From the IMG/VR virus record IMGVR_UViG_3300029721_000142: DNA of 12,070 nt, one strand, 5' to 3'. Of this stretch, positions 1 to 12,070 are shown in pieces (the stretch's first letter is position 1; every line of letters begins with the position of its first letter). This DNA is from a virus. Taxonomy: Duplodnaviria; Heunggongvirae; Uroviricota; Caudoviricetes. A model generated the notes under the pieces. That model saw only the letters and a program-made list of their open reading frames with translations. It ran no database searches and was not told where the DNA came from. The position numbers were made by a program, and so were the translations under genes.

Positions 1-1230
1 ATGAGCAGAGCACTTAACAAACTGAGCGATACACAGCTGAGGAAAATCAACGGCACACCCGCCCAAAAAACAGCCTTTCTTAATGACGGTGGAAACCTGA
101 GCGTCAGGCATTCAACCAGTGGCCTTTTAACCTGGTATTTCACTTACAGGGCCGGAACGGGAAGGGGGGCACCACCGGAACGCATTAAGCTGGGAAATTA
201 TCCTGATCTGAGCCTGAAATCAGCCAGGGAAAAAGCCGCCCAGTGTCGCGCATGGCTGGCAGAGGGGAAAAATCCACGTCATGAAATGAATTACACCGTA
301 CAGGAAGCGTTAAAGCCGGTAACGGTTGGCGATGCGCTCACCTACTGGCTTGAGTCGTACGCAAAGGAAAACCGCGTGGATTATGCCGCCCTGAAAAAGC
401 GCCTTAATAATCACGTAATACAGCACATTGGTGCTATGCCGCTGGATAAATGCGAGCTACGGCACTGGCTGGCCTGTTTTGACCAGGTGGCAAAGCGAAC
501 GCCTGTTACTGCCGGATTCTTGCTACAGACGTGCAAACAGGCGCTTAAGTTCTGCCGGAGGCGGCGCTATGCAATCAGCAACGTTCTTGATGATATGAGT
601 GTGGCGGACGTTGGGAAAAAACCGGATATAAGCGAGCGCGTCTTAAGCACCAAAGAACTTGGCGAATTATTGCAGGCACTGGACAAAAAAATATTTTCCC
701 CTTACTACGTCGCACTAATCCGCCTCCTGATTGTTTTCGGATGCCGGACGGTAGAACTGAGGTTATCGGAGATCAGCGAGTGGGATTTTACCGAAATGCT
801 CTGGACCGTGCCGAAAGAACACAGCAAAACGAAGGTGGCAATATTCCGGCCCATACCGGAAGCAATACTGCCGTTCGTCACGCAGCTGGTGGAGCAGAAC
901 AGGCACACGGGCTTATTGCTGGGGGAAGTGAAACAGGAAACAAGCGTGTCGCAGTACGGCAGATTAGCGCACAGGAGGCTAAAACACCCTCACTGGTCAC
1001 TGCATGACATCCGGCGCACCTTTACAACCATGCTGAACGATTTAGGCGTTGATCCGCATGTCGTGGAGCAGCTTACAGGTCATCAGATGCCAGGGATGCA
1101 ACGAGTCTATAACCATTCCCGTTATCTGGATGCGAAACGTGACGCGCTGGATATGTGGACGGAGCGGTTAGGGATACTGGCGGGAACACATGAAAACGTA
1201 ACCACATTGCCAATAGCCAGAGAAATATAA
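1..1230 (+). CDS. int: Tyrosine recombinase / integrase, P4-type
   Basis: 409-aa ORF. C-terminal catalytic region carries the tyrosine-recombinase signature (LHDIRRTF ... LTGHQMPGMQRVYNHSRY, i.e. His-x-x-Arg then the Tyr nucleophile region). N-terminal ~80 aa (LSVRHSTSGLLTWYFTYR) resemble the arm-binding domain of P4-family integrases. Position at the island edge fits. Family assignment from recalled signatures. Confidence 0.9.
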   Translation: MSRALNKLSDTQLRKINGTPAQKTAFLNDGGNLSVRHSTSGLLTWYFTYRAGTGRGAPPERIKLGNYPDLSLKSAREKAAQCRAWLAEGKNPRHEMNYTVQEALKPVTVGDALTYWLESYAKENRVDYAALKKRLNNHVIQHIGAMPLDKCELRHWLACFDQVAKRTPVTAGFLLQTCKQALKFCRRRRYAISNVLDDMSVADVGKKPDISERVLSTKELGELLQALDKKIFSPYYVALIRLLIVFGCRTVELRLSEISEWDFTEMLWTVPKEHSKTKVAIFRPIPEAILPFVTQLVEQNRHTGLLLGEVKQETSVSQYGRLAHRRLKHPHWSLHDIRRTFTTMLNDLGVDPHVVEQLTGHQMPGMQRVYNHSRYLDAKRDALDMWTERLGILAGTHENVTTLPIAREI

Positions 1231-1255
1231 TTTTTTTTGCGATTTTTCAGGATGC

Positions 1256-1315
1256 GGACAACGTGAAACAACGAGACACAACGACGAACAACAAGGAACA
1301 AAATGGAACAACGGG
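1256..1315. repeat. Six tandem 10-bp repeats (ggacaacgtg / aaacaacgag / acacaacgac / gaacaacaag / gaacaaaatg / gaacaacggg; core RAACAAC) just downstream of int
   Basis: Seen directly: strict 10-bp periodicity over 60 bp, one helical turn per repeat, followed by an AT-rich stretch up to alpA. Candidate protein-binding array (integrase arm sites, AlpA or host factor sites). Confidence 0.6.
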
Positions 1316-1595
1316 TTAAAAATCAGCCATCGTAATAACCATTTGATTTTTATAGGTGTACTGTTTTTTTATACACTGGCGAATTACTCTTAAAAATATG
1401 TAAAAAAGGCGTAAAAGTAAAATTTTATGCCTTTGCATCATAATGAATTAAAAGAGTTTTTATTCTCATTCCCCCTGCTTCTGTAAAACGACCGCCGCCA
1501 GTGTTTGCCATTCCACAAACACCCTGACACAATCCGACACAACCCAACCCAATAATCCACCCAATGACTCTTTAAGAAACAACAAAGGGGGAATT

Positions 1596-1784
1596 GTGTT
1601 AAGCACAGATCGCTTTATACGTGAAAAAGAATGTCAGCAACTTACAGGCCTGAGCCGCTCATGTCGGTACCGCCTGGAAAAAGCCGGACAATTCCCATCA
1701 CGGCGTAAGCTGGGCGGTCGTTCCGTTGGCTGGTCTTTATCCGAAGTTCTGGCATGGAAGGACAGCTGCGAGGCAGTTCACTAA
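1596..1784 (+). CDS. alpA: AlpA-family phage transcriptional regulator (small HTH, excisionase-like)
   Basis: 62-aa ORF with GTG start at 1596 and RBS aaaggggga upstream. The sequence LTGLSRSCRYRLEKAGQFPSRRKLGGRSVGWSLSEVLAWK matches the AlpA family pattern (ITGLSRST.YRL...G.FP....LG.R.V.W...E...W). Position immediately after int is typical of P4-like elements and Gram-negative PICIs. Confidence 0.85.
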   Translation: MLSTDRFIREKECQQLTGLSRSCRYRLEKAGQFPSRRKLGGRSVGWSLSEVLAWKDSCEAVH

Positions 1785-1836
1785 TCAGGCTGGCGGCACA
1801 CAGCCGCCACCCATCCACTAATACAGAGATCTAACC

Positions 1837-2212
1837 ATGAATACTGGATATTCTCCCGAACAAGGGCGGGGCTTCGTTCGTCCTGAAAAACAGAATCTGC
1901 AAAATTTTGCCGAAATTATTCCGGTTATTTCCGGCCTTACTGGCGGGAGTGAAACCAATATTGCTAACGCCAGAGCGTTGCAGATGTTTGATGATAAAAA
2001 GGGAGTAAATTTAACTTACACCCCTGACGGCAATCAGAATATGAGCATTATCTCTGAGTCAGGTTTCTACAAACTAATAAAAACAAAAAGCGCCCCGTTG
2101 CCGGAGCGCCTTTGTGAACAATTAACCTACTGCGCAAAAAATGAATCTGAGCAGTGGGATTATATCAACCATGTGGAGAAGCGCCACAATTGCCGAATAA
2201 CGGGCAAAACAA
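1837..2212 (+). pseudogene. Protein-like 5' part of a 423-codon ORF (1837..3108); probable 3'-truncated gene remnant, possibly with a Bro-N/antirepressor-like fragment
   Basis: The first ~125 codons have normal protein composition (ISESGFYKLIKTKSAPLPERL is faintly Bro-N-like). From about 2212 to 2922 the same frame becomes Cys/Ser/Arg-rich nonsense while the opposite strand holds two well-formed small genes and a terminator. The frame reopens as a plausible small gene only at 2923. No in-frame stop exists before 3108. Confidence 0.3.
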
Positions 2213-2233
2213 AGGCCACCCGCTACGGTGGCC
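2201..2233 (-). terminator. Rho-independent terminator for the minus-strand two-gene operon
   Basis: Perfect 7-bp stem GGCCACC / GGTGGCC (2214-2220 and 2227-2233) with a 6-nt loop. On the minus strand it is followed by TTTGTTTTG. It lies about 80 nt downstream of the 62-aa gene stop. Confidence 0.5.
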
Positions 2234-2312
2234 CCTCGACACAAGCTACACGTTATCCCCAACGCATGAGCATTGCCAACAATGCCACATTTGCGGCTGG
2301 TGGGCAATGCAA

Positions 2313-2501
2313 TCAGTCTGGTTCAGTTCGTTGCCATACCTGCAATGAGCGCTTTTCCCTGTACTCTTTAAGGAATTGCTCAAGGGCAAAAGCACATGGC
2401 GCGAATCTTTCTGATTCATGCTCTATCTTTCTGCGCCGTCTTTTCCGTGCCGGTGATAATGTTTTGGTCAATTCTTTATCGGTCATTGTGTTGTCCTGCA
2501 T
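2313..2501 (-). CDS. Small basic protein (62 aa), downstream partner of the RHH gene; function unknown
   Basis: ORF in the same frame and operon as the RHH gene. Contains an arginine/lysine cluster (ARKRRRRK) followed by a predicted helical segment. An alternative start exists at the second Met (MTDKEL...). Confidence 0.45.
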   Translation of the reverse strand: MQDNTMTDKELTKTLSPARKRRRRKIEHESERFAPCAFALEQFLKEYREKRSLQVWQRTEPD

Positions 2502-2543
2502 AGCAATGCGCCGTAGTTCCTCACACCACGGCGCTGATGGTGA

Positions 2544-2723
2544 TTACTCTGGTTCTTTGGCCTTGCGCCGCTGGCGATATTCAACTTCTCGTTTTAATGC
2601 CGCAGTAACAAATTGCCCCGTACTTTCGCCAGGCATTTTTACCGCCTCAACATTGTTCATAACTTCATGCGGAACCCTTGCCGCAACGGTTTGTGATTTT
2701 GCGTTTACTGCTTTTGTCGCCAT
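2544..2723 (-). CDS. Ribbon-helix-helix (CopG/Arc/MetJ-like) DNA-binding protein, 59 aa; candidate repressor or antitoxin
   Basis: Hand-translated from the minus strand (below the ORF-track size cutoff): MATKAVNAKSQTVAARVPHEVMNNVEAVKMPGESTGQFVTAALKREVEYRQRRKAKEPE. Layout is beta strand (TVAARVP), helix A, loop, helix B, typical of RHH proteins. RBS GAGGGG sits 7 nt upstream of the ATG and an in-frame stop lies 5 codons upstream. It faces the operator cluster at 2773-2826. Confidence 0.65.
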   Translation of the reverse strand: MATKAVNAKSQTVAARVPHEVMNNVEAVKMPGESTGQFVTAALKREVEYRQRRKAKEPE

Positions 2724-2772
2724 GTGGTGTACCCCTCATAAAAAACAAATGCAGTATGCAGGAAAAAAAATA

Positions 2773-2826
2773 AGTGTTCAACACTTGACGTGTTTAACAC
2801 CTGGGTTTAAATTGGTGTTCAACACC
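2773..2826. promoter_or_regulatory. Operator cluster: three copies of the palindrome GTGTT(C/T)AACAC overlapping divergent promoters
   Basis: Seen directly: aGTGTTcAACACt (2773-2785), GTGTTtAACAC (2790-2800), gGTGTTcAACACc (2814-2826). A plus-strand promoter candidate is TTGACG (2785-2790), 17-nt spacer, TAAATT (2808-2813). A minus-strand promoter candidate is TTGAAC, 17-nt spacer, CATACT upstream of the RHH gene. Operators overlap the -35, spacer and +1 regions. Confidence 0.6.
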
Positions 2827-2922
2827 TTGTTGGCGCAAGGTGCAGAAACGACGAAACCCGGCAGTGCGCTAACACTAACCGGGCTTCTAACCACCAACGA
2901 TAGCGAAAGTATCGAGGTAGCT

Positions 2923-3108
2923 ATGAGAAATCATACCACACACCCGCAAGGGCGGGACTCGCACGACCTGAATAAATACATCTGGCGTTTTATCGCCCTG
3001 AGCACGGCACAACCGCGCGTGATTACCATCGAGGCCACCAGCGAACAGGAAGCGCGTCAGCAATCTCCTGATGGCTGCGTGATGGTATTCGCTGCCCGTA
3101 TTCGCTAG
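2923..3108 (+). CDS. Small protein (61 aa), tentatively Icd-like/Ash-region-like; first gene of the early operon
   Basis: ATG at 2923 with RBS GAGGT 5 nt upstream. Protein MRNHTTHPQGRDSHDLNKYIWRFIALSTAQPRVITIEATSEQEARQQSPDGCVMVFAARIR. The ATSE.EAR....FAAR motif resembles small Icd-like proteins found upstream of replication genes in P4-like prophages (from memory, unverified). Confidence 0.45.
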   Translation: MRNHTTHPQGRDSHDLNKYIWRFIALSTAQPRVITIEATSEQEARQQSPDGCVMVFAARIR

Positions 3109-3118
3109 GGGGTAGGCC

Positions 3119-3340
3119 ATGTGCAATAAAACCACACCGGACGCAGCAGCCGCCGCGCTCACTACGCTGATGCACGCGCTTATTGATATTGAATGCACGG
3201 CAGAGCTTGCGCAGGGAGAAGAACAGAAAGACCGGACAACGTTCGCCCAGGAATGTATCCGATACATCGCAACGCGGTCACTGAATGACGCTAAAAATAT
3301 TCTTGTTGCCGATTGTGAAAATGGGGGGGGTTATGCGTGA
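3119..3340 (+). CDS. Hypothetical protein (73 aa)
   Basis: ORF with RBS gggggtagg upstream, tightly packed in the early operon. The C-terminus runs through a G8 homopolymer and overlaps the next gene by 8 nt. Confidence 0.5.
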   Translation: MCNKTTPDAAAAALTTLMHALIDIECTAELAQGEEQKDRTTFAQECIRYIATRSLNDAKNILVADCENGGGYA

Positions 3341-3554
3341 TGATCGTTTTAATTCCCTGAAACAGGAATTTTCCGGCGTTCCTGATGATGCGGCTGATGC
3401 GCTTTCGTCAATGCCAGAGCTTATTAGAGCGGCTTTTTTCTTACTTTCCACGAGAGAATATAAATCAACGGGGCTTGATGTACTGAATATCGCCGCCGAT
3501 TATGCTGATTTCGTGACAGAGGTTATTTTAAGAAAAACGACGGACGGGGATTAA
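3333..3554 (+). CDS. Hypothetical protein (73 aa; MRDDRFNSLKQEF...)
   Basis: The ORF track starts this frame at 3285, but the ATG at 3333 directly follows the G8 tract (RBS-like) and avoids a long overlap with the upstream gene. Start choice is an inference. Confidence 0.5.
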   Translation: MRDDRFNSLKQEFSGVPDDAADALSSMPELIRAAFFLLSTREYKSTGLDVLNIAADYADFVTEVILRKTTDGD

Positions 3555-3555
3555 T

Positions 3556-3789
3556 ATGCGTGATATTTACCACGAAACAATAGACCGCGCATTTCTTGCA
3601 CTTTCTCACAGTGAAAACATGCTGGAAATATTGCGCATATGGCTTGAAACACTTGGCGACAATGAACGCGACAAACAAAAATCAAGAATTGCCACGGCAT
3701 TAATAACGCTTCTTGAGCCTGTAATAATGGAACTGCAAGAAATAGATCTATTGCACGACAGATATAAAGAACAGCACACCGGAGAATAA
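3556..3789 (+). CDS. Hypothetical protein (77 aa)
   Basis: ORF starting 2 nt after the previous stop, with protein-like helical composition. No family recognised. Confidence 0.55.
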   Translation: MRDIYHETIDRAFLALSHSENMLEILRIWLETLGDNERDKQKSRIATALITLLEPVIMELQEIDLLHDRYKEQHTGE

Positions 3790-3794
3790 AAATA

Positions 3795-4094
3795 ATGAAA
3801 CTTAAATATTCTGGCTTAACTGCCAGTGGCAACACTCACCCTAAATTTACGCGCGGTGATATTTACCGCGACCAGTACGGCGGCACGGTAATGATTAAGG
3901 GCGTGGAAGAACGGCGCGTAACCTACCGCCGTGAAGGTTACGAATATGATTGCGTGATGCCTGTTTATCAGTTCCGGCGTGATTTTTCTCTGGTACAGAC
4001 CGCGCCGCATAACGTGCCCACCAGCAACGCCAGGGCACGGGCAAACATCCAGAAGCTGAAAACCATGATTAACGGATTCAGGGGCAAGAAATGA
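3795..4094 (+). CDS. Hypothetical protein (99 aa)
   Basis: ORF whose stop overlaps the rep start (ATGA at 4091-4094), implying translational coupling. No family recognised with confidence. Confidence 0.55.
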   Translation: MKLKYSGLTASGNTHPKFTRGDIYRDQYGGTVMIKGVEERRVTYRREGYEYDCVMPVYQFRRDFSLVQTAPHNVPTSNARARANIQKLKTMINGFRGKK

Positions 4095-5491
4095 AAAGCG
4101 CACCGAACTTAAAAAAACAGCCTTACGACAAGATGACCGAAGTCATTATTTTTGCGGGTAGTGATGCCTGGGCACATGCGAAACAGTGGCAGGAACAGGA
4201 CGGGCGACTGGCTGGCGATAATGTGCCTCCCGTTGTGCTGGCTGATGATCAACTGGATGAACTGGCAGACCTGAGAATCATCGACGAGGGGCGCTATTGT
4301 GTCCGGCTGTACAAGGCAGGCCACATCAGGCCATCAAATATTAATGCCATTGCGCACAAGCTGGCGGCGGCGGGTGTAACTGATGCGAATTATTACCCCG
4401 AAGGGATGCACAGCCATATGCGGGAGAACTGGCGCGAATACCTGGAACGGGTGCGCGGGAAAGAGCCGGTGGAAGAAAAAAACCACCAGCGAAAAACCAC
4501 GCTACCGATGAGCGTTGGATCTACCGGATACGACACGCAACTGGATTACGTGGTTAAGGGGATTATTCCGGCGGTATCGCTATGCAGCATATACGGGGCT
4601 AGCGGGTCCTATAAATCATTCCTTGCCGGATCGTGGGCGTGCCATGTTGCCACTGGTCGCCAGTGGGGAGGCCGCAGGGTTGCACATGGTGCGGTTCTCT
4701 ATGTGGTTGGTGAAGGCGGTATAGGTGTTCCGCGTCGTGTAAAAGCCTGGGAGGTTGTGCACGATGAGCAGGTGAAAAATCTGTATCTGGTAAACCGCCC
4801 CATCTTTCCGGCTGCCCCGCTTGATGTTGATGAAATGGTTATCGCTGCCCGTCAGGTGGAGCGGGAAACGGGTAAACCTGTACGCATGATTATTCTGGAT
4901 ACGCTGGCGCGTTGCTTTGGTGGGAATGATGAAAATGATTCCCGTGATATGGGGGCGTTTATCCGTGGTTGTGACGAACTGAAACGACGCACAGGGGCCA
5001 CGGTGCTGGTGGTTCACCATTCCGGCAAGGATGAGACGAAAGGCGCGCGCGGTTCCAGTGCATTTCGTGCTTCGCTGGATGCTGAATACCGGATACGCAG
5101 GGAGGACGCAGGAAGCGAAGCGCTGGTTATCTCATGCACCAAAATGAAGGACGCGGAGGAACTCAAAGAAGCCGCATATGACTTACGCGTGGTGGAGCTT
5201 TTTACCGACGCTGACGGTGAATTAATCACGTCGCTGGTGGTGGTGGATGATCCGCGCCCTCCTGTTGAACTGGAGCGCATCGAGGAGGCAGGGAACAAGA
5301 CGGAAAACCATACCGCGCTATGGGGGTGCATCCGTTCACGCACACAGAACGGCGACAAGTGCACGATCCCGCTGTTACGTGATGACATGAAAAAGCTGGG
5401 GTATGAAATGAAAAACTTCCGGCGCTGGCTGTACAAGCTGGAAAAAGATGGGGTTATTCGTATCGATGGGGATGATGTAGCGCCGCTATAA
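4091..5491 (+). CDS. Replication protein: RecA-fold RepA/DnaB-like ATPase (AAA_25 type) with an N-terminal TOPRIM-like region
   Basis: 466 aa. P-loop IYGASGSYKSFLAG, Walker B MIILDTLARC, and the RepA-type motif VLVVHHSGKDETKGARGSSAFRASLD. N-terminal EVIIFAGSDAWAHA ... PVVLADDQLDE is suggestive of a TOPRIM-like domain (inference). Followed immediately by an iteron array. Confidence 0.8.
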   Translation: MKSAPNLKKQPYDKMTEVIIFAGSDAWAHAKQWQEQDGRLAGDNVPPVVLADDQLDELADLRIIDEGRYCVRLYKAGHIRPSNINAIAHKLAAAGVTDANYYPEGMHSHMRENWREYLERVRGKEPVEEKNHQRKTTLPMSVGSTGYDTQLDYVVKGIIPAVSLCSIYGASGSYKSFLAGSWACHVATGRQWGGRRVAHGAVLYVVGEGGIGVPRRVKAWEVVHDEQVKNLYLVNRPIFPAAPLDVDEMVIAARQVERETGKPVRMIILDTLARCFGGNDENDSRDMGAFIRGCDELKRRTGATVLVVHHSGKDETKGARGSSAFRASLDAEYRIRREDAGSEALVISCTKMKDAEELKEAAYDLRVVELFTDADGELITSLVVVDDPRPPVELERIEEAGNKTENHTALWGCIRSRTQNGDKCTIPLLRDDMKKLGYEMKNFRRWLYKLEKDGVIRIDGDDVAPL

Positions 5492-5682
5492 AAGTGAGGA
5501 GCAAAAGCGAGGGGGATAGAAAGAGGGCCAAAATTAGCCCGCTCTCCCTCACTTTTCGACCTGTATACATCCTCAAAAGTGAGGGGTAAAAAAATACTTA
5601 TGAAACACACACATAGAAAAACCGAAAATCCCAACTGCGACGAAGTGAGACGCTTGAAAAAGTGAGGCGAAAAAGTGAGAGG
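5491..5682. repeat. Putative origin of replication: iteron array of AAGTGAG(G/A) repeats around an AT-rich core
   Basis: Seen directly: AAAGTGAGG (5491-5499), variant AAAGCGAGGGG (5504-5514), inverted CCCTCACTTTT (5546-5556), AAAAGTGAGGGG (5575-5586), GAAGTGAGA (5642-5650), AAAAAGTGAGG (5657-5667), AAAAGTGAGAGG (5671-5682). An AT-rich stretch lies at 5587-5630. Iterons directly downstream of rep are the usual ori arrangement in PICI/SaPI-type elements. Confidence 0.55.
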
Positions 5683-5691
5683 TTGCGAGAA

Positions 5692-5943
5692 ATGACCCAA
5701 AAACGCAGAGACAGAACAGAGCCAAAATATAAAGCGTTAGACATGACTGAGCACACCTTAAAGGTGGCAATCAGAACGATAGACCGCCACACGCGGGAAG
5801 GATACGCGAAGGAACATCCCGACCTGATAAGCGCATTCATGACCACGGCGGCGGCAAACTTTGCCACGCTGACAGAACGGGAGATTGCCGAAGCGGAACA
5901 GGTAACAACCATCAACGTTAAAACCGGAGAGGTGGAATCATGA
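5692..5943 (+). CDS. Hypothetical protein (83 aa)
   Basis: ATG at 5692 with RBS GAGAGG upstream. The ORF-track start at 5662 lies inside the iterons. The stop overlaps the ssb start (ATGA). Confidence 0.5.
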   Translation: MTQKRRDRTEPKYKALDMTEHTLKVAIRTIDRHTREGYAKEHPDLISAFMTTAAANFATLTEREIAEAEQVTTINVKTGEVES

Positions 5944-6350
5944 CAGCACAGATAGCCGCTTACGGGCGGCTGGTGGACGACCCGCAGGTAAAACAGACCA
6001 GCAAGGGCACACCGATGACGCTGGCGCGTATGGCGGTCCCCCTTCCGTGCAGCCAGGCAGATGACGGAACGGCGACGATGTGGTTATCCGTCCTGGCATT
6101 TGGCAGACAGGCCGAAGCACTGGAAAGGCACCGCAAGGGTGAACTCCTGAGCGTGGCGGGTAACATGCAGATCAGCCAGTGGACTGGGCAGAACGGAGAA
6201 ACGCGGCAGGGTTATCAGGTTATTGCAGACAGCGTAATCAGTGCCCGTGCGGCACGTCCTGGCGGGAACAGACGCAAAACCACAGGCACACAGGGTAATC
6301 AGCTACCAGCGGGAGGCGATGACCCTTACGGTGATGATATTCCGTTCTGA
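5940..6350 (+). CDS. ssb: Single-stranded DNA-binding protein (phage-type SSB)
   Basis: 136 aa. OB-fold-like core (IAAYGRLVDDPQVKQTSKG ... WLSVLAFGRQAE ... GELLSVAGNMQISQWTGQNGETRQGYQVIADSV), a Gly/Gln-rich linker, and the hallmark acidic C-terminal tail DDIPF. Confidence 0.9.
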   Translation: MTAQIAAYGRLVDDPQVKQTSKGTPMTLARMAVPLPCSQADDGTATMWLSVLAFGRQAEALERHRKGELLSVAGNMQISQWTGQNGETRQGYQVIADSVISARAARPGGNRRKTTGTQGNQLPAGGDDPYGDDIPF

Positions 6351-6360
6351 GGGGGTGAGG

Positions 6361-6609
6361 ATGGTACATGACCGCATAGCGGAGGAACTCGAGGCAAAAG
6401 GCTTTTACCGGAGGGCGGCGGCACGATGGGGTGAAGTCATGCAACTGGTGGAGACAGACAAGGAACGGCATCAGGTTACGATGCGACGGCTGGAATGTTC
6501 CAGGAAGGCACAGAGGCCACCGGAGCCGCCAACGGAGAACTATGCAGACCTGAGAAATGCAGTAAATCGCACTTACGCAGACATGGGGCTGAGCAAATTA
6601 GCAGAGTAG
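6361..6609 (+). CDS. PerC-family-like transcriptional regulator (82 aa)
   Basis: ATG at 6361 after RBS gaggggg; the ORF-track start at 6241 overlaps ssb and is rejected. The N-terminus MVHDRIAEELEAKGFYRRAAARWGEVM matches my recollection of the PerC family signature (LE.KGLYRRAA.RW). Last gene before the double terminator. Confidence 0.55.
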   Translation: MVHDRIAEELEAKGFYRRAAARWGEVMQLVETDKERHQVTMRRLECSRKAQRPPEPPTENYADLRNAVNRTYADMGLSKLAE

Positions 6610-6632
6610 GAATACCAGAACCACACCACACA

Positions 6633-6654
6633 GCCGGAGCAATCCGGCTTTTTT
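6633..6654 (+). terminator. Rho-independent terminator (GCCGGA gcaa TCCGGC + T6)
   Basis: Seen directly: 6-bp GC stem, 4-nt loop, six T residues, 24 nt after the PerC-like stop. Confidence 0.7.
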
Positions 6655-6660
6655 GCGCCC

Positions 6661-6702
6661 AAAAAAAGCCCGATAAGGTCAGAGGTGGCTTATCGGGCTT
6701 TT
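6661..6702. terminator. Second, bidirectional-type terminator (A7, GCCCGATAAG, 11-nt loop, CTTATCGGGC, T4)
   Basis: Seen directly: 10-bp perfect stem flanked by an A-run and a T-run. Tandem with the previous terminator, separating the early and late operons. Confidence 0.65.
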
Positions 6703-6779
6703 GCATATGAGGTTTTTTGGTGCACTGACACACATGATCGGGATAATCATTTCATAATTTGCAACGCAACTCAATTTCA

Positions 6780-6830
6780 TTGCACAAAATGCAATCATGA
6801 TTATAATCATAACTGGATGAACATCCAGTT
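6780..6830 (+). promoter_or_regulatory. Late-operon promoter (TTGCAC, 16-nt spacer, consensus TATAAT) embedded in two perfect palindromes
   Basis: Seen directly: -35 TTGCAC (6780-6785); -10 TATAAT (6802-6807); 14-bp palindrome ATGATTATAATCAT (6797-6810) covering the -10; palindrome AACTGGATG-aa-CATCCAGTT (6811-6830) covering the predicted +1. RBS aagagga precedes the ATG at 6864. Confidence 0.55.
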
Positions 6831-6863
6831 ATGATTTTTTAAGTCAAAGAGGAATTTCTTACT

Positions 6864-7070
6864 ATGGCTGAAGAGAAAAAAGGCGGTGTTTCGGTGTACA
6901 TAAGCCCCGACATCGTGAAGGCGCTCAAGGAACGCCACCAGCAGAACGTAAAAGCAGGCATTGCGGCAGGACTTGATCCGCTGGCGATGGTTGAGCCGTC
7001 AACAGGCTGGCAGGTACGCGCCTATTTACGCGCGGCGCTGGGTATGAATCAGGTTCACGGGGGTGAATAA
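6864..7070 (+). CDS. Hypothetical protein (68 aa), first gene of the late/capsid operon
   Basis: ORF with a good RBS. Its stop overlaps the capsid gene start (TAATG), implying translational coupling. Function unknown; a scaffold or size-determination role is speculation. Confidence 0.6.
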   Translation: MAEEKKGGVSVYISPDIVKALKERHQQNVKAGIAAGLDPLAMVEPSTGWQVRAYLRAALGMNQVHGGE

Positions 7071-8125
7071 TGACAGTAAAAGCAATGGCACTTAACACTA
7101 ACCAGCTTTTTGCGTACCTGAATCGCGGGGATATTGCGGAATTTAAATTCAGTCCGCTGTTTACCACGCTGTTTTTCCCGAACGTGGCGACATTCAGCAC
7201 GCAAAACATCATGCTGGATACCCTGGACATTGAAGAAGTCACCATGTCGGCGTTTTGTTCGCCTATGGTGGGTAGCCAGGTTCAGCGCGATAAAGGGTAC
7301 GAAACCAGCACGATTAAACCTGGCTACATGAAGCCAAAGCACGAAATCGATCCAACGAAAACCATCATGCGCATGGCTGGAGAAGATCCGGCACAGCTTA
7401 ACGACCCTACCTATCGCCGTATGCGCCTGATTACTGGCAATATGCGCCGCCAGATAAACGCCATAAAAGCGCGCGTGGAATGGCTGGCGGTAAATGCGGT
7501 AACGACCGGAAAAAACATCATTGAAGGCGAAGGCATAGAGCGCTATGAAATCGACTGGAAGATACCGGAAAAAAACATCATAGAGCAGGCCGACGGGAAA
7601 AAATGGTCAGAGCAGGACAAAGAAACCCACGATCCAATCTATGATATCGAACTATACGCCGATCAGGCTGGTTGCCCCGCAAACGTCATGATTATGGGCG
7701 CTGAGGTATGGCGAACGTTACGCAGCTTTAAAAAATTCCGTGAGCTGTACGATCTTTCCCGTGGTTCAGAGTCCGCCGCAGAGCTGGCCTGTAAAAACCT
7801 GGGCGAAGTGGTGAGCTTTAAAGGCTATCTGGGCGATATTGCCCTTATCGTCTATTCCGGCAAATACACTGACAGCGACGGCACAGAAAAATATTTCCTT
7901 GAGCCTGATTTGCTTGTCCTGGGCAACACCAACAATAAAGGGCTGGTGGCCTATGGTGCGATTATGGATCAGGACGCAGTAAGAACGGGCGCAACGCAAA
8001 ACATGTTTTACCCGAAAAACTGGATTGAGGACGGCGATCCGGCGATTGAGTACGTGCAGACGCACAGCGCACCGCAGCCGGTTCCGGCAGATATTCGCAA
8101 ATTTGTTACCGTCAAAATTGGTTAA
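7070..8125 (+). CDS. Major capsid protein, lambda gpE-like (HK97 fold)
   Basis: 351 aa. Blocks of recalled similarity to lambda gpE (341 aa): EFKFSPLFTTLFF vs KFKFDPLFLRLFF; KPGYMKPKHEIDP vs TPGYVKPKHEVNP; DPTYRRMRLITGNMR vs DPAYRRRRIIMQNMR; KWSEQDKETHDPIYDIELYA vs EWSKRDKSTYDPTDDIEAYA; YPKNWIEDGDPAIEY vs YPKNWVTTGDPAREF. Similar length. Confidence 0.9.
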   Translation: MTVKAMALNTNQLFAYLNRGDIAEFKFSPLFTTLFFPNVATFSTQNIMLDTLDIEEVTMSAFCSPMVGSQVQRDKGYETSTIKPGYMKPKHEIDPTKTIMRMAGEDPAQLNDPTYRRMRLITGNMRRQINAIKARVEWLAVNAVTTGKNIIEGEGIERYEIDWKIPEKNIIEQADGKKWSEQDKETHDPIYDIELYADQAGCPANVMIMGAEVWRTLRSFKKFRELYDLSRGSESAAELACKNLGEVVSFKGYLGDIALIVYSGKYTDSDGTEKYFLEPDLLVLGNTNNKGLVAYGAIMDQDAVRTGATQNMFYPKNWIEDGDPAIEYVQTHSAPQPVPADIRKFVTVKIG

Positions 8126-8136
8126 CGGGGGATTCT

Positions 8137-8472
8137 ATGGACACTCCATACATTGAGTTATTTGCAGGCAGTCAGCAGGTCGCCACGACGCTGGTACATT
8201 TTGCCGCTGATGCTGGCGTTATTCAGGAATTTACCCCGCTGATGCTGGCGGACAATGGCGAGTTTAAGCCGTGGGATGGTAAGGAATCTGGCAAGGCTGT
8301 TTATCTGACCTCGTACCCTGTGGACACGTCAAAGCAGAAATCAGCACAGTGTTACAAGACGGGGATATTCAATATTGCCGCCGTTAACTGGCCTGAGAGC
8401 GTCGACACCGATGCGAAAAAATGCGCCGCCTTTGCGGGTTCCGGCGTATCCGTTCAGCCGCTGGCCCGATAA
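8137..8472 (+). CDS. Head decoration protein, lambda gpD-like
   Basis: 111 aa vs lambda gpD 110 aa. Recalled motif similarity: TPLMLADNGEFKPWDG vs TPLMLDTSSRKLVAWDG; YKTGIF vs YKSGTF; WPE; KKCAAFAGSGVS vs KKRTAFAGTAIS. Gene order is E-like then D-like, the reverse of lambda. Confidence 0.85.
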   Translation: MDTPYIELFAGSQQVATTLVHFAADAGVIQEFTPLMLADNGEFKPWDGKESGKAVYLTSYPVDTSKQKSAQCYKTGIFNIAAVNWPESVDTDAKKCAAFAGSGVSVQPLAR

Positions 8473-8484
8473 GCAGGGGGAACG

Positions 8485-8898
8485 ATGGCAACGAATGAAA
8501 GCATCATGACGCTACCGCTGGCGAGTAAATTTAAAGCCGAAGCGCGGGCAATGGCTGACAGAGGTTTATCAACCTATGAGGCCGTATATCAACTAAACAA
8601 ACTGGAAGAGCAGGACAAGCCGCGCGCTGATGCGATTATGGCGCTTCATGAGCATAAAGACTATCAGCCGCTGTTACGTGCAATGGCAAACGTGCCATGT
8701 ATTAGCGTCGATAATGCTCGTGAAATCCTGAACATGACCATAGAGCAGGAGCGCCCAAAGGTTGCACCAGAGCTTACCGCAGCCTTTGAAAACTTTATGG
8801 ACATGCACAGCCCGCAAGCCGTATCAGCTGGCATGGCATACGATGGCAGAAACCAGGGCGATGACGGCGACATCGATCGCATACTGAAAACCATCTGA
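8485..8898 (+). CDS. Hypothetical protein (137 aa) between the decoration gene and cos
   Basis: ORF with RBS cagggggaacg, followed by a terminator. No family recognised. It occupies the position that gpFI has after gene E in lambda (positional analogy only). Confidence 0.6.
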   Translation: MATNESIMTLPLASKFKAEARAMADRGLSTYEAVYQLNKLEEQDKPRADAIMALHEHKDYQPLLRAMANVPCISVDNAREILNMTIEQERPKVAPELTAAFENFMDMHSPQAVSAGMAYDGRNQGDDGDIDRILKTI

Positions 8899-8903
8899 GA
8901 CAA

Positions 8904-8926
8904 GGCCGGAGAAATCCGGCTTTTTT
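8904..8926 (+). terminator. Rho-independent terminator (GCCGGA gaaa TCCGGC + T6)
   Basis: Seen directly. The hairpin is nearly identical to the one at 6633-6654 (loop gaaa vs gcaa). Confidence 0.65.
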
Positions 8927-8927
8927 A

Positions 8928-8992
8928 CGGGTCCTTCCTGGAATTATGGCCCGTTACGGGGCGGCGACCTCGCGGGTTTTCGCTATTTATGA
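8928..8992 (+). other. cos-like element, left copy: cosQ-like flank + cosN (GGGCGGCGACCT, 8959-8970) + 22 bp of lambda-like left-end sequence; no R-site array
   Basis: Seen directly: cgggtccttcctggaattatggcccgttacg GGGCGGCGACCT cgcgggttttcgctatttatga. The 12-mer equals the phage lambda cohesive end, and the flanks resemble the lambda right end (ACGGGTCCTTTCCGG...GTTACG) and left end (CGCGGGTTTTCGCTATTTATGA), quoted from memory. It is an inverted duplicate (63/65) of 9676-9740. Confidence 0.75.
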
Positions 8993-9059
8993 CGTTTTTC
9001 CGTGAAGGTGACACCACCACCACTTGATTAATATTTAACCATGCAGTTAAGGTAACATT

Positions 9060-9494
9060 ATGATTGATAAAGCTTGTTTTGTAAGTCAGCAGGAAATAGC
9101 TGAACATTTCAAGGTTAACAGAACCACTATTCGCGCATGGACCAAACAGGGGATGCCGTATCTTAATGCGGATCGCGGAAAGTCTGGCGGTTATCACATC
9201 GGGCATACATTGCTTTGGTCTTCAGGTAAAAGCCGTCTTGAGGCCATCAGATATCACGTAGAAACCAGTGCGCTGGAAAAAATTATGTTTGCCAGGCTGC
9301 TTTCATCTGAGCGTGACGAGTACTCCAGTGAAGAAACAGAACATCGATTTGATGAAGGTTTGCAGATTTACGGCTATTCACCGGAAGATGTGAGCAAGGC
9401 ACGAAATAAAATGGCTGGCTTTCTGGCTGGGTGGCGTCATGCCGTAAGCGTTCGCCGTGCCAGCATGGAGCAATCAGCCGATACAGAACAGTAA
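9060..9494 (+). CDS. Small terminase subunit-like protein with a Nu1-type N-terminal DNA-binding domain; candidate packaging-specificity or redirection factor
   Basis: 144 aa. N-terminus MIDKACFVSQQEIAEHFKVNRTTIRAWTKQGMPYLNADRGKSGGYHI parallels lambda Nu1 MEVNKKQLADIFGASIRTIQNWQEQGMPVLRGGGKGNEVLY (winged HTH). The C-terminal half is unlike the Nu1 region that binds gpA. The gene sits between the two cos copies. Confidence 0.8.
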   Translation: MIDKACFVSQQEIAEHFKVNRTTIRAWTKQGMPYLNADRGKSGGYHIGHTLLWSSGKSRLEAIRYHVETSALEKIMFARLLSSERDEYSSEETEHRFDEGLQIYGYSPEDVSKARNKMAGFLAGWRHAVSVRRASMEQSADTEQ

Positions 9495-9562
9495 AGCCGA
9501 TAACTTGTTAATCACTCGCAGCAATGCATGTGATTTGTGCACACTTTCGGTTAACTGGTTCG

Positions 9563-9740
9563 ATGTCCGGTTTTAGTGTCTGTTTTTTGCGCATGTCCGG
9601 TTCATGGAAAGCATGTTTTTATATTTTTCATATGGTTAACTTGCAGAGAAACCGGACATGGATCCCGAAAAATTTTCATAAATAGTGAAAACGCGCGAGG
9701 TCGCCGCCCCGTAACGGGCCATAATTCCAGGAAGGACCCG
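9563..9740 (-). other. Complete cos-like site in inverted orientation: cosQ-like flank, cosN (9698-9709), three R-type repeats ATGTCCGGTT, AT-rich bend region
   Basis: Seen directly. cosN lies on the minus strand as aggtcgccgccc. Repeat copies are at 9563-9572 and 9593-9602 (direct) and 9650-9659 (inverted, nearest cosN), with an AT-rich segment at 9611-9633 between them. This mirrors the lambda cosN-R3-I1-R2-R1 layout but with a different repeat sequence (lambda R elements contain CGTTTCC). Confidence 0.75.
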
Positions 9741-9773
9741 ACGACACCAGACTATCAGAACGATGGGGGCACA

Positions 9774-10055
9774 ATGACAGAAGCCGAAATACTGCGATTA
9801 ATCCGCCGCGTTGCCGGAATCAGCCAGCAGGCCGACGAACAGACCACGCAGCCGGACAGCGTGACCGCCGAAAATTATGTTCGTGTGGTTGCTGAGGTGA
9901 TTCGCCGTAATGGTATCCAGCTTAATGATGTGGATATGCGCAACATACGGATCCGCGTTCTTGAAATGCTGGCCTACAATCGCCGCGTGGCACTGTATCG
10001 GGAAACGGAGAAAATTACGTACCACTGGAAGAAGCCGGAGCGGTTGCGGCGGTAA
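9774..10055 (+). CDS. Hypothetical protein (93 aa), last island gene
   Basis: ATG at 9774 with RBS gatggggg 5 nt upstream. The ORF-track start at 9576 would read through the cos repeat and is rejected. No family recognised. Confidence 0.55.
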   Translation: MTEAEILRLIRRVAGISQQADEQTTQPDSVTAENYVRVVAEVIRRNGIQLNDVDMRNIRIRVLEMLAYNRRVALYRETEKITYHWKKPERLRR

Positions 10056-10057
10056 CT

Positions 10058-10217
10058 GGTTGATATTTTCGAAATTCGCCAGCGGCGAACATCGGGGAAA
10101 CCAGCCTAACCCGTTGATATTTTCGGGAACCTCAAATTGAAGAGGTCGGAAACATAACCCGTCATATTCTGGATGCTGATAATTACCACGCAGCCCATTA
10201 AGGCCTAACCCGTTGAT
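10058..10217. repeat. Degenerate direct repeats at the island/chromosome junction (GGTTGATATTTTCG; CCTAACCCGTTGATATTTTCGGG; TAACCCGTCATATT; GCCTAACCCGTTGAT)
   Basis: Seen directly at 10058-10071, 10105-10127, 10155-10168 and 10203-10217. Candidate right attachment-site arm sites; the left att is outside the window so a core direct repeat cannot be confirmed. Confidence 0.4.
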
Positions 10218-10460
10218 TCTTCCACAATCCCCCATTGGGGGAGGCTGGGCGGCCTGCTGTGGGCTTTTCCACCATTGGTGGAAAGGCGCACATCTGGATC
10301 ATCATTACGGTGATCAAGGGTATGTAAAACCCACCAGCCTGATTGACATTTAACCGGAAAAAAGCCAGGTAGCCCCGTTATGGGGATCCCCATATCGACA
10401 TTAACGCCCCTCATGAATTGGCGCGCTTCCCCCTGGAAAGATGACCCGCCTGTATATTTC

Positions 10461-10490: not shown

Positions 10491-10609
10491 CAGTGCAACG
10501 ATCGGTGTAGTTAATGGTGTAGTCAATTTGCGATTTTTAGCACTTTTTGCAGTGCAAATCATTTAATTAAATCAATGGCTTGCCTTGATGTAGTGATAAA
10601 AGGGCATAT

Positions 10610-12070
10610 TTATTCATCTTTCGGCGCAGAATGCTGGCGACCAAAAATCACCTCCATCCGCGCACCGCCCAGCATGCTCTCTCCGGCGACGATTTTACCC
10701 TCATATTGCTCGGTGATTTCGCGGGCTACCGCCAGCCCTACACCTTGCCCAGGGCGTAAAGTATCAACCCGTTGACCACGGTCGAAAATGACCTCTCGCT
10801 TGCTTAATGGAATACCGGGGCCATCATCCTCGACCACAATATAGAGATGCTCGTCGGTTTGCCTTGCAGAAATTTCGACAAACTCGAGGCAATATTTACA
10901 GGCATTATCCAGCACGTTGCCCATCACCTCGACAAAATCGTTCTGCTCACCGACAAAGCTGATCTCTGGCGAAATATCGAGAGAGATATTGACCCCTTTG
11001 CGTTGATACACTTTGTTCAGCGCTGAGGTGAGATTGTCCAGCAGTGGGGCGACCGGATGCAGCTCGCGGCTGAGCAATGTCCCGCCGCGCATACTGGCAC
11101 GATGCAGGTAGTAGCCAATTTGCTGTGAAATGCGGCTGATTTGCTCCAGCATTACCGGCTCAGCATCACTGACGCTCATCTTTTCACTACGCAGAGAACG
11201 CAGCGTACTTTGCAGCACCGCCAGTGGCGTTTTCAGACTATGGGTCAGGTCGGTGAGCGTCGTACGGTATTTGTCGTAACGTTCGCGTTCACTTTTTAAC
11301 AATCGGTTCAGGTTTCGTACCAGACTGGTCAGTTCTCGCGTTGTGGCTGGATTGAGCAATTCGCGGTTATGTTCTTCCAGTTCGCGGACTTCTTTTGCCA
11401 GGGCTTCGATGGGGCGTAAACTCCACCAGGCGGCGACCCACAGCAGCGGGATCACTAACAGCAGATTGGCTGAGAGCACATAGATAAACCAGCTCCAGAC
11501 CATATAGGAACTTTTTAGCTCCACCGGAATGGTATCCACCACCACAATGGTTAATTTTGGCATCCGCGATGTTGCCGGGTAGACGTTTACTGCCACCGAG
11601 TGGGTCATCTCCGCGTCGTCATCATCTTCCCGCACTTCCTGCAACTGTTGCTGTATCGAATGATCTCCACTCAGCAAGAGGCTGGTATCGTTAACATCCG
11701 CTTCAATTTCATGAAAACCATTCGATTTCAGCCAGTCAGGCTGGATCATCTTCATCAGCCAGGGCACGTCACGTTGCGCCCATAAAAGCTGCCCGTTCTC
11801 ATCATAAATTAGCGTCATGGTGGGGCTTTGCTTGTCGATATTTTCGGGTAACTCGACATGCAACTTATTGTTTTCCCACTTCGCAAGGGTATAGAACAGA
11901 TTGCTCTCGCCACGTAACAGCCGAAACGTAGTTTTATCGAAACTGACGCTATAACCGATCAGCGCGACCATTCCGTAGGCAAGCGAAAGCACCAGTACTA
12001 CCGCTGCCGTTGCCAACAGAAAACGTACCCGCAGCGAGAGCGGGAAAAAAAGACGCAGTAATTTTTTCAT
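10610..12070 (-). CDS. phoQ: Sensor histidine kinase PhoQ (PhoP/PhoQ two-component system)
   Basis: 486-aa ORF spanning to the window edge. Two transmembrane segments flank a periplasmic sensor domain with the acidic patch EDDDDAE, followed by HAMP, the phosphoacceptor His box ([12 protein letters not shown]) and an ATPase domain with G boxes (DDGPGI, GQGVGL). Sequence matches E. coli PhoQ as I recall it. Confidence 0.97.

Follow-up and report, generated by a model that had tools for sequence, protein, structure and literature searches.

Among the Gram-negative phage-inducible chromosomal islands (PICIs), EcCICFT073 of E. coli CFT073, the prototype of the cos type, has been studied experimentally (Fillol-Salom et al. 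2018 ISME J; 2019 Mol Cell), and its helper-dependent induction, packaging and high-frequency transfer have been demonstrated (PMC6092414, PMC6739421). Two cos sites were reported in this island, and the names c1499 for the capsid gene and c1500 for the decoration gene date from a 2018 study (PMC6092414). A capsid gene is carried by 21 of the 29 reference GN-PICIs (PMC10111431) and, in the SatelliteFinder model of PICIs, counts among the five core components (PMC10085698). In EcCICFT073, the deletion of c1499 or c1500 left both the interference with lambda and the transfer by resident prophages intact, and all of the DNA packaged with lambda as the helper was phage-sized (PMC6092414). When the genes were expressed singly, only c1503 (RppA, 144 residues) blocked lambda, and HK97 was insensitive to it (PMC6739421). 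Additionally, EcCICFT073 islands in which c1498–c1501 had been swapped for cas9 or melA were still packaged and transduced by phi80.

The DNA analyzed in the current study, a stretch of 12,070 nucleotides (the window), carries an EcCICFT073-family Gram-negative PICI of approximately 10.8 kb between roxA and phoQ, a copy that is known from its sequence alone. Membership was assessed against the Gram-negative PICIs of the EcCICFT073 type, namely SatelliteFinder PICI Type A. A tyrosine integrase gene (int, 1..1230; Pfam Arm-DNA-bind_3 5e-18, Phage_integrase 6e-17) stands at one end, adjoined by an AlpA-type regulator (1596..1784; Pfam Phage_AlpA 3e-18). The island has its own replication module, comprising a RepA-family AAA_25 helicase (4091..5491; Pfam AAA_25 2.4e-43, phrog_2850, and phrog_906 'DNA polymerase/primase' 3e-53) and a single-strand DNA-binding protein (5940..6350; Pfam SSB 1.2e-15). 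The final gene 5' of the capsid operon encodes a PerC-family regulator (6361..6609; Pfam PerC 2.1e-35), a family to which the annotations of CFT073 and of O157:H7 strain LSU61 also assign its counterpart. A capsid morphogenesis gene orthologous to c1499, a packaging-redirection gene and helper-type cos sites complete the set, and all assigned genes are on the + strand in a rightward layout at a dedicated chromosomal attachment site. The last island gene is a conserved 93-aa ORF (9774..10055; phrog_1561 2e-53), annotated at the same position in CFT073 and in the compared loci L001 and L004–L006. The junctions were set by comparison with the empty roxA-phoQ site of K-12 MG1655, and the right junction (10602..10611, attR core about GCATATT) abuts the phoQ stop codon. 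No tail, holin, portal, head-tail connector or TerL gene was found among the scanned island ORFs. The initial annotation had described the region as lacking portal, protease and large terminase genes, and indeed no match to these families was obtained between int and phoQ, where tail and lysis genes are also absent; it had further advised a search for a portal or terminase to the left of int, a position directly occupied by roxA in relatives with the island at this site (e.g., L001). No Rfam family was present in the window at the gathering threshold, and the 5027 defence models of PADLOC gave no match among the ten ORFs scanned.

Comparison with CFT073 revealed the same roxA/phoQ attachment site and the same gene order, int-alpA-...-rep-SSB-PerC-orf68-capsid-decoration-137aa-cos1-rppA-cos2-orf93. 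Identity to the CFT073 counterparts is 100% for the decoration protein and RppA and 93% for the 137-aa protein, while the capsid protein differs from the CFT073 structure PDB 3BQW by 3 substitutions over 350 aligned residues (E = 1.7e-238). The two islands diverge in the variable zone from alpA to the replication genes and also in the replication module: EcCICFT073 encodes a 584-aa D5-type primase ('DNA primase family protein'), whereas the present island encodes a 466-aa RepA/AAA_25 helicase, and a Pfam scan found no D5_N primase domain in its replication module. The same RepA-type module is present in other islands at the roxA/phoQ site. The window copy is a mosaic variant of EcCICFT073 and not a new type; the initial annotation knew of no described satellite family with this complement of genes, but the EcCICFT073-type GN-PICI had already been published (PMC6092414, PMC10111431, PMC10085698). 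As the capsid and decoration genes had been both described and knocked out in EcCICFT073, their occurrence here is an ordinary finding, apart from the scaffold homology described below.

The capsid genes belong to a late operon of four tightly packed genes, and the initially proposed unit, including its 68-aa and 137-aa ORFs, was confirmed. The stop codon of orf68 (6864..7070) overlaps the start of the capsid gene (7070..8125), and the decoration gene (8137..8472) and the 137-aa ORF (8485..8898) follow after gaps of 11–12 nt. Terminators consisting of a hairpin plus a T-run lie on both sides of the unit on the + strand: two hairpins end the upstream transcription unit (6632-6649 and 6664-6702; z = -4.4), and an intrinsic terminator closes the four genes (8902..8929; a -16.6 kcal/mol hairpin, then UUUUUU). 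The terminator at 8902 is an 87% identical copy of that at 6628-6657. The predicted promoter/operator region of the operon (6703..6863, + strand) contains a TATAAT box, TTGCA repeats and a palindrome at 6805-6836, and the interval 6700-6875 showed 96% mean column identity when aligned among six islands. Since the left arm of the palindrome varies without compensating changes, it is more likely to be an operator than an RNA hairpin. An attenuator or terminator hairpin at this position was rejected on the basis of this uncompensated variation and of its overlap with the TATAAT box.

The first gene, orf68, is the c1498 orthologue by position and matches phrog_3255 (8e-37). Its dN/dS values range from 0.14 to 0.44, and the AF2 model shows a beta-hairpin with two helices (pLDDT 74.6). 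Searches of Pfam and NCBIfam assigned orf68 to no family, and it does not resemble lambda gpW. A ribbon-helix-helix fold, also considered, was unsupported, the best Foldseek match of the AF2 model against the PDB having E = 1.7.

Profile searches bore out the gpE-like and gpD-like assignments made at the outset. The 351-aa product of the second gene is a lambda gpE-type (HK97-fold) major capsid protein (Pfam Phage_cap_E E = 2e-52; phrog_29 E = 3e-109), with 44% identity to lambda gpE and 45% to the capsid protein of the CFT073 helper. The third gene, the c1500 orthologue, encodes a gpD/SHP-type head decoration protein of 111 aa (Pfam HDPD E = 2.5e-17; PDB 1TD0 5.6e-13) that is 36% identical to lambda gpD. 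All four ORFs of the operon are intact in six diverged copies, among which dN/dS was 0.07–0.16 for the capsid gene, 0.04–0.25 for the decoration gene and 0.16–0.55 for the 137-aa ORF. These substitution ratios indicate that the capsid module is under purifying selection. The module was found in 592 of 5426 complete E. coli genomes (about 11%), where its attachment sites number at least three. The capsid gene also precedes the decoration gene in PICIs of Salmonella, Edwardsiella and E. coli, whose capsid proteins are 56–68% identical; these diverged relatives were reached through protein-database and contig look-ups, and the species-representative genome scan with the capsid protein yielded no confirmed relative. 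No phage capsid protein among 50,697 records was more than 48% identical to that of the island.

The fourth gene, the c1501 orthologue by position, is a homologue of the C-terminal domain of lambdoid gpC/Nu3 scaffolds, and the initial statement that the island has no scaffold is therefore probably wrong. Alignment of its 137-aa product by hhalign with a lambdoid scaffold alignment including lambda Nu3 gave a probability of 96.2% (E = 2.7e-9), and an F-E-x-F-M-x-x-H-S-P motif is common to the protein and the gpC/Nu3 C-terminal region. The protein matches phrog_1999 and, with 1.7e-10, positions 495–567 of the 583 of phrog_53 (head maturation protease), and it is 39% identical to residues 416–493 of an S49 peptidase (501 aa) from the helper prophage of CFT073 (BLASTP E = 3e-11). 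Its remote homologues match scaffold and capsid-assembly PHROGs. The protein itself contains no protease domain, the sole protease-related signal in the island being this non-catalytic C-terminal scaffold domain. BLASTP against lambda Nu3 found nothing (E = 3.4), so that the link to Nu3 runs only through the gpC-type protein of the CFT073 helper and the profiles. A PDB sequence search gave no match, the AF2 model is all-helical with low confidence (pLDDT 55.8), and only 9 matches were obtained among 1.84 billion representative proteins. The NCBI label of this family, 'phage head-tail connector protein', was rejected, as it is supported by no profile. The scaffold-like gene is missing from more distant PICIs that retain the capsid and decoration genes, which indicates that it is not an obligatory partner of the pair. 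What appears to be new here is the reading of this neighboring "unknown" gene as a short scaffold protein, which is unmentioned in the EcCICFT073 and PICI literature that we found.

Adjoining the operon are a packaging gene and two cosN sites, all overlooked by the initial annotation. The gene rppA (9060..9494, + strand; 144 aa) encodes a protein that matches RppC in PDB 6HLK with 5e-31. A cos1-type site (8928..9005, + strand) contains the exact lambda cosN GGGCGGCGACCT at 8959-8970, and an inverted cos2-type site (9663..9740, - strand) contains the exact lambda cosN at 9698-9709, the two sites being the arms of one 78-nt inverted repeat. For EcCICFT073, published work has shown that the island is induced by a lambdoid helper of the cos type (lambda, phi80 or CFT073 phage 4) and that RppA and the helper TerS form a heterodimer, which retargets the helper terminase to cos1 (PMC6739421). 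The packaged DNA has the length of a phage genome and enters phage-sized heads that bear helper tails; we infer that each head would hold approximately four copies of the 10.8 kb island.

Several described systems resemble the operon in part. The capsid-forming PICIs (cf-PICIs, EcCIEDL933 type) share with the island the backbone of int, alpA and replication genes and an HK97-fold capsid protein of their own; however, their gene set extends to portal, protease, head-tail connectors, HNH, TerS and TerL, and the small heads that they form are their own, whereas the island has none of these genes. Helper-embedded PICIs (HE-PICIs, e.g., 11capE; PMC10111431), to which the compared loci L009 and L011 belong, contain the same capsid-then-decoration pair with the same backbone, but they are inserted in helper late genes, whereas the island occupies a chromosomal site. 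In the SaPIs, the capsid homologue Ccm of SaPIbov5 and the short scaffold C-terminus mimic CpmB of SaPI1 both have counterparts in the island, and transfer does not require the cpm genes despite their conservation (PMC6893505), just as deletion in the present type of operon is tolerated. Nevertheless, Ccm, CpmA and CpmB have no sequence relationship with the island proteins, the island adds a decoration protein, and the SaPI proteins demonstrably redirect head size, whereas EcCICFT073 with lambda gives phage-sized heads. The Nu3-D-E genes of lambda form a homologous trio, with the scaffold C-terminal domain related at the profile level. As noted initially, the island has the E-like before the D-like gene whereas lambda has D before E, and the trio as a whole runs in precisely the opposite order on the same strand (E-D-Nu3-like), with no portal or terminase adjacent; moreover, the lambda scaffold gene overlaps the protease gene, whereas the island homologue has no overlapping protease gene. 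P4-like satellites share with the island only the integrase and AlpA types, and no ORF matched the P4-like markers Sid/Psu, Delta, Epsilon or the alpha primase-helicase in Pfam or PHROG.

The region is very probably best explained as the late operon of an EcCICFT073-family PICI that is spread by helpers; a role of the operon in shell formation is a tentative proposal that we hold at somewhat below even confidence. According to this proposal, the operon would be an accessory 'shell kit' that still depends on the helper: heads of T=7 size would be built on the helper portal and protease core from the satellite capsid, decoration and scaffold-like subunits, which would supplement or replace the helper gpE and gpD. 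The kit would be redundant with lambda and phi80 and would bring a benefit where the capsid supply of a natural helper is limiting, incompatible or interrupted, and such redundancy would account for the lack of a laboratory phenotype. This same lack counts against the role, the entry of the proteins into particles being a proposal, and co-assembly with the helper is uncertain because the identity to helper capsid proteins is only 44–45%. A more specific form of the proposal, which we regard as doubtful, is that of a three-part satellite-specific kit, in which the capsid protein and the decoration protein that pairs with it are joined by a truncated, CpmB-like mimic of the helper Nu3 C-terminus; with natural lambdoid helpers other than lambda and phi80, this kit would produce satellite-made or chimeric heads on the helper portal or would rescue helpers with interrupted capsid genes. 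A precedent for the 137-aa ORF is SaPI1 CpmB, likewise a mimic of a helper scaffold C-terminus and not needed for transfer (PMC6893505). If this form were true, the island would represent an intermediate stage between classical and capsid-forming PICIs.

The initial annotation had instead suggested smaller satellite heads or poisoning of helper capsid assembly. For the helpers used, both were negative: the DNA packaged with lambda was all phage-sized, the deletion of c1499 or c1500 did not relieve interference, and RppA alone of the expressed genes blocked lambda. The capsid-gene deletion that it recommended, with measurement of transfer and helper titre, had already been published, and transfer and lambda interference were unchanged (PMC6092414). 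These results leave room for a role of the operon with natural helpers other than those used. A restricted version, in which the satellite capsid and truncated scaffold mimic force small heads or disturb the assembly of helper heads with certain natural helpers only, is improbable in our estimation. In its favour, head size is redirected by the capsid homologue Ccm of SaPIbov5 and a scaffold C-terminus is mimicked by SaPI1 CpmB (PMC6893505), small heads are also made by PmCI172, a Pasteurella PICI with a capsid homologue, and the 137-aa ORF, homologous to the Nu3 C-terminal domain, is short (lambda Nu3 has 201 aa). Packaging a 10.8 kb monomer by cos would, however, require a much smaller head, and none has been seen. 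The dispensability of the operon for transfer would also suit a non-structural role, in which the capsid-like proteins act as decoys, immunity factors or regulatory factors and not as particle components, for example by titrating the helper scaffold or protease, shielding from capsid-sensing host defences or excluding competing lambdoid phages. Anti-phage functions are common in satellites (PMC10085698), and a scaffold C-terminal mimic could compete for binding sites on the capsid protein; nevertheless, neither the role nor these particular forms of it receive more than slight credence from us, as no ORF scanned matched a defence model, expression of the single genes did not inhibit lambda, and the conservation of the capsid protein together with the decoration protein that pairs with it suggests a real capsid lattice.

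That the operon might be a neutral relic, either a captured helper late-gene cluster or the leftovers of a degraded lambdoid prophage that are now functionless, is very improbable. The absence of a laboratory phenotype would agree with it, and PICIs are known to capture helper late-gene clusters (PMC10111431). However, the ORFs are intact in every copy examined and under strong purifying selection, 11% of complete E. coli genomes contain the module, with several attachment sites among them, conservation upstream of the operon reaches 96% in the control region, and the PICI-specific gene order persists down to 56% capsid identity while phage relatives reach at most 48%. A degraded lambdoid prophage head operon in particular was rejected, as core genes flank the 10.8 kb island, the gene order is reversed, the ORFs are intact, dN/dS is well below 1 and phage capsids are no more than 48% identical; the element is a satellite island, as initially stated.

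About a tenth of complete E. coli genomes thus keep a satellite capsid and decoration pair that is selected yet dispensable in the laboratory, which is a puzzle, and the scaffold homology offers a concrete handle on why the pair is kept. The answer would show whether classical Gram-negative PICIs give structural subunits to the particles that carry them, with bearing on helper range, on the evolution of satellites towards cf-PICIs and on engineered PICI delivery vehicles. In such vehicles, the c1498–c1501 block is routinely swapped for cargo.

By gene content and position, the island in the window is an EcCICFT073-family Gram-negative PICI. E. coli CFT073 carries the same gene string at its roxA/phoQ site, and the island differs substantially from EcCICFT073 only in its variable zone and in its replication module, which has been exchanged. 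The plus-strand genes begin with the integrase (1-1230) and an AlpA-family gene (1596-1784), after which the variable zone extends to DUF4222 (3795-4094), followed by a 466-aa RepA/AAA_25 helicase (4091-5491) and SSB (5940-6350). CFT073 has a 584-aa D5-type primase (L002, 2242-3996) instead of this helicase; its late module is nearly identical. Each replication version is found together with this capsid operon in further strains, one in L001, a roxA/phoQ relative, and L004 from O157:H7 LSU61, the other in the islands L005 and L006, and such mosaicism is ordinary among these islands. In the variable zone, the 423-aa ORF at 1837-3108 had no Pfam or PADLOC match and, as listed, is unlikely to be genuine; in related islands this zone is occupied by several small genes (YlcI/YnfO family, Icd-like), some on each strand.

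Relative to the empty K-12 roxA-phoQ site (L012, 1242-1316), the right junction falls at about 10602-10611, adjoining the stop of phoQ (10610-12070, minus strand), which gives an island of about 10.8 kb. The attachment core is approximately 7 bp, GCATATT, abutting the phoQ stop codon, and the insertion lies inside the 75-bp roxA-phoQ spacer. The last island gene, after cos2, encodes a conserved 93-aa protein of the uncharacterized family phrog_1561 (9774-10055); CFT073, L001, and L004-L006 each have a gene of this size at the corresponding position.

The profile searches proposed in the initial annotation bore out its lambda-like capsid and decoration proteins. For the ORF at 7070-8125, the hits were Pfam Phage_cap_E at 2e-52 and phrog_29, the "major head protein" family, at 3e-109; its product shares 44% identity with lambda gpE and, over 350 aligned residues, departs by three substitutions from the "putative capsid protein of prophage" in PDB 3BQW. 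The ORF at 8137-8472 matched Pfam HDPD (2.5e-17), shares 36% identity with lambda gpD and 100% with its CFT073 counterpart, and has 1TD0, a head decoration protein, as its top PDB match. Together with orf68 (6864-7070) and a 137-aa ORF (8485-8898), these genes were described as one operon; this reading is reasonable, since the four ORFs are tightly packed and hairpin-plus-T-run terminators lie both upstream (6632-6649, 6664-6702) and downstream (8902-8923). The stretch 6700-6875, which includes the upstream control region, showed 96% mean column identity in the alignment of six copies, and conservation of the intergenic region 6703-6863 exceeds that of synonymous sites in the downstream operon genes. 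This region contains a TATAAT box, repeats of TTGCA(A/C), and a palindrome at 6805-6836 that is perfect over 15 bp; the core, CTGGATGAACATCCAG, is near-invariant, with one substitution among the six copies, and the palindromic region is probably an operator. The PerC-family gene directly upstream of the operon (6361-6609, plus strand) matched Pfam at 2e-35, with a weak ANR-family match; a role of PICI-borne PerC-like genes in virulence regulation has been discussed (PMC11773190).

The absence of portal, protease, and large terminase genes was also upheld, as no island ORF matched portal, catalytic protease, large terminase, tail, or lysis families. The suggested inspection of the region left of int led, in relatives with an island at roxA/phoQ, to the core gene roxA, with no portal, protease, or large terminase gene beside the module. 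The further statement that the island lacks a scaffold is probably wrong. The 137-aa protein, 93% identical to its CFT073 counterpart, matches the C-terminal end of phrog_53 "head maturation protease" (positions 495-567 of 583), and over its last 83 residues it shares 39% identity (E=3e-11) with a 501-aa S49 peptidase (residues 416-493), the gpC/Nu3 equivalent of the CFT073 lambdoid prophage beside icd. The few remote homologues match PHROGs annotated as "head scaffolding protein" or "capsid assembly protein", as well as phrog_1999, the family of the 137-aa protein itself. The alignments show common repeats and an F-E-x-F-M-x-x-H-S-P-x-x-V motif, recognizable in lambda Nu3 as well, and profile-profile comparison with a lambdoid scaffold alignment including lambda Nu3 gave 96.2% probability (E=2.7e-9). 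By these comparisons, the 137-aa ORF, which contains no protease domain, is related to the gpC/Nu3 scaffold C-terminus, a relation of which we found no mention in the literature cited here. The island thus carries a homologue each of lambda Nu3, D, and E, and their order (E-D-Nu3-like) is the exact reverse of that in lambda, in agreement with the inversion noted initially. The "head-tail connector protein" label that NCBI occasionally gives this family was supported by no profile.

Downstream, a 144-aa ORF (9060-9494) is 100% identical to RppA of CFT073, which has the same length, and matches the RppC structure 6HLK (5e-31). It is bracketed by a 78-nt inverted repeat (arms 8928-9005 and 9663-9740, 91% complementary), and each arm contains one exact lambda cosN, GGGCGGCGACCT, at 8959-8970 on the plus and 9698-9709 on the minus strand, so that the packaging gene lies between two oppositely oriented cos sites, in agreement with the published cos1 and cos2 of EcCICFT073. 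A small terminase of the Nu1 type, full-length at 180-185 aa, fills the RppA slot in O157:H7 LSU61 (L004, 11242-11784, annotated small terminase subunit) and, by Pfam Phage_Nu1, in Salmonella (L008, 10678-11235) and other PICIs of E. coli (L010, a PICI relative, and L011, a metagenome contig, both 10948-11490), indicating that related islands use either Rpp or a complete TerS beside the same capsid-decoration pair.

The satellite island with its own shell genes stands, whereas its supposed novelty does not, as its type and shell genes are already known. The proposed capsid-gene deletion has been done: deleting c1499 (capsid) or c1500 (decoration) of EcCICFT073 changed neither lambda interference nor resident-prophage transfer (Fillol-Salom et al., PMC6092414). 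When genes downstream of the origin were cloned singly, c1503 (RppA) was the only one to block lambda (Fillol-Salom et al. 2019, PMC6739421), and engineered islands carrying cas9 or melA in place of c1498-c1501 were still packaged and transduced by phi80 (PMC10530653, PMC10460865). The EcCICFT073 capsid homologue, with normal head size with lambda, was noted in a review (Dokland 2019, PMC6893505), and the SatelliteFinder PICI model, which yielded 375 complete (Type A) elements, 97% in E. coli, counts "capsid morphogenesis" among its five core components (PMC10085698).

What is left of interest is the function of a widespread, selected module, a question made more testable by the scaffold homology. 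A neutral relic is highly improbable. Each of the four ORFs remains intact in all six copies compared, which come from three attachment sites; Nei-Gojobori dN/dS is 0.07-0.16 for capsid, 0.04-0.25 for decoration, 0.16-0.55 for the 137-aa gene, and 0.14-0.44 for orf68, and this pattern of substitution indicates that the genes are kept by selection. Counted when at least 80% of its 2035 bp was found, the module occurs in 592 of 5426 complete E. coli genomes, at roxA/phoQ, allE/allC, and tqsA, and the nearest capsid proteins among 50,697 phage records reach 46-48% identity at best; on these searches, it is common and satellite-specific.

We tentatively favor the operon as an accessory shell kit, whose subunits would assemble on a helper portal and protease core, supplementing or replacing helper gpE and gpD. 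With lambda and phi80 such a kit would be redundant; it would be of use where helper capsid supply is limiting, incompatible, or interrupted. SaPI1 offers a precedent: cpmA and cpmB are conserved and CpmB mimics the helper scaffold C-terminus, but both are dispensable for transfer (PMC6893505). The near-identical EcCICFT073 is induced by a lambdoid helper, and RppA binds helper TerS, retargeting the terminase to cos1 (PMC6739421); packaging is of phage-genome length in phage-sized heads (PMC6092414), which at 4 x 10.8 kb, or about 43 kb, would correspond to approximately four island copies per head. The mechanisms initially suggested, size redirection or poisoning of helper capsid assembly, were negative with standard helpers, and their action with helpers other than lambda seems unlikely; a non-structural decoy or exclusion role is, in our judgment, quite unlikely.

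The capsid-then-decoration order is kept in Salmonella, Edwardsiella, and E. coli PICIs with 56-68% identical capsid proteins, and the scaffold-like gene is not retained in these distant islands. Two relatives sit inside helper prophage late genes, one in a portal gene (L009, Edwardsiella tarda, 786-10394) and one in capsid gene E (L011, 1919-11783); each has its own capsid-then-decoration pair, and both are examples of the published helper-embedded PICIs. In a Logan contig, the 463-aa protein P0072, at 56% identity to the capsid protein, combines Phage_cap_E and HDPD domains in one chain, either as a natural fusion of capsid and decoration proteins or through a frameshift in the assembly.
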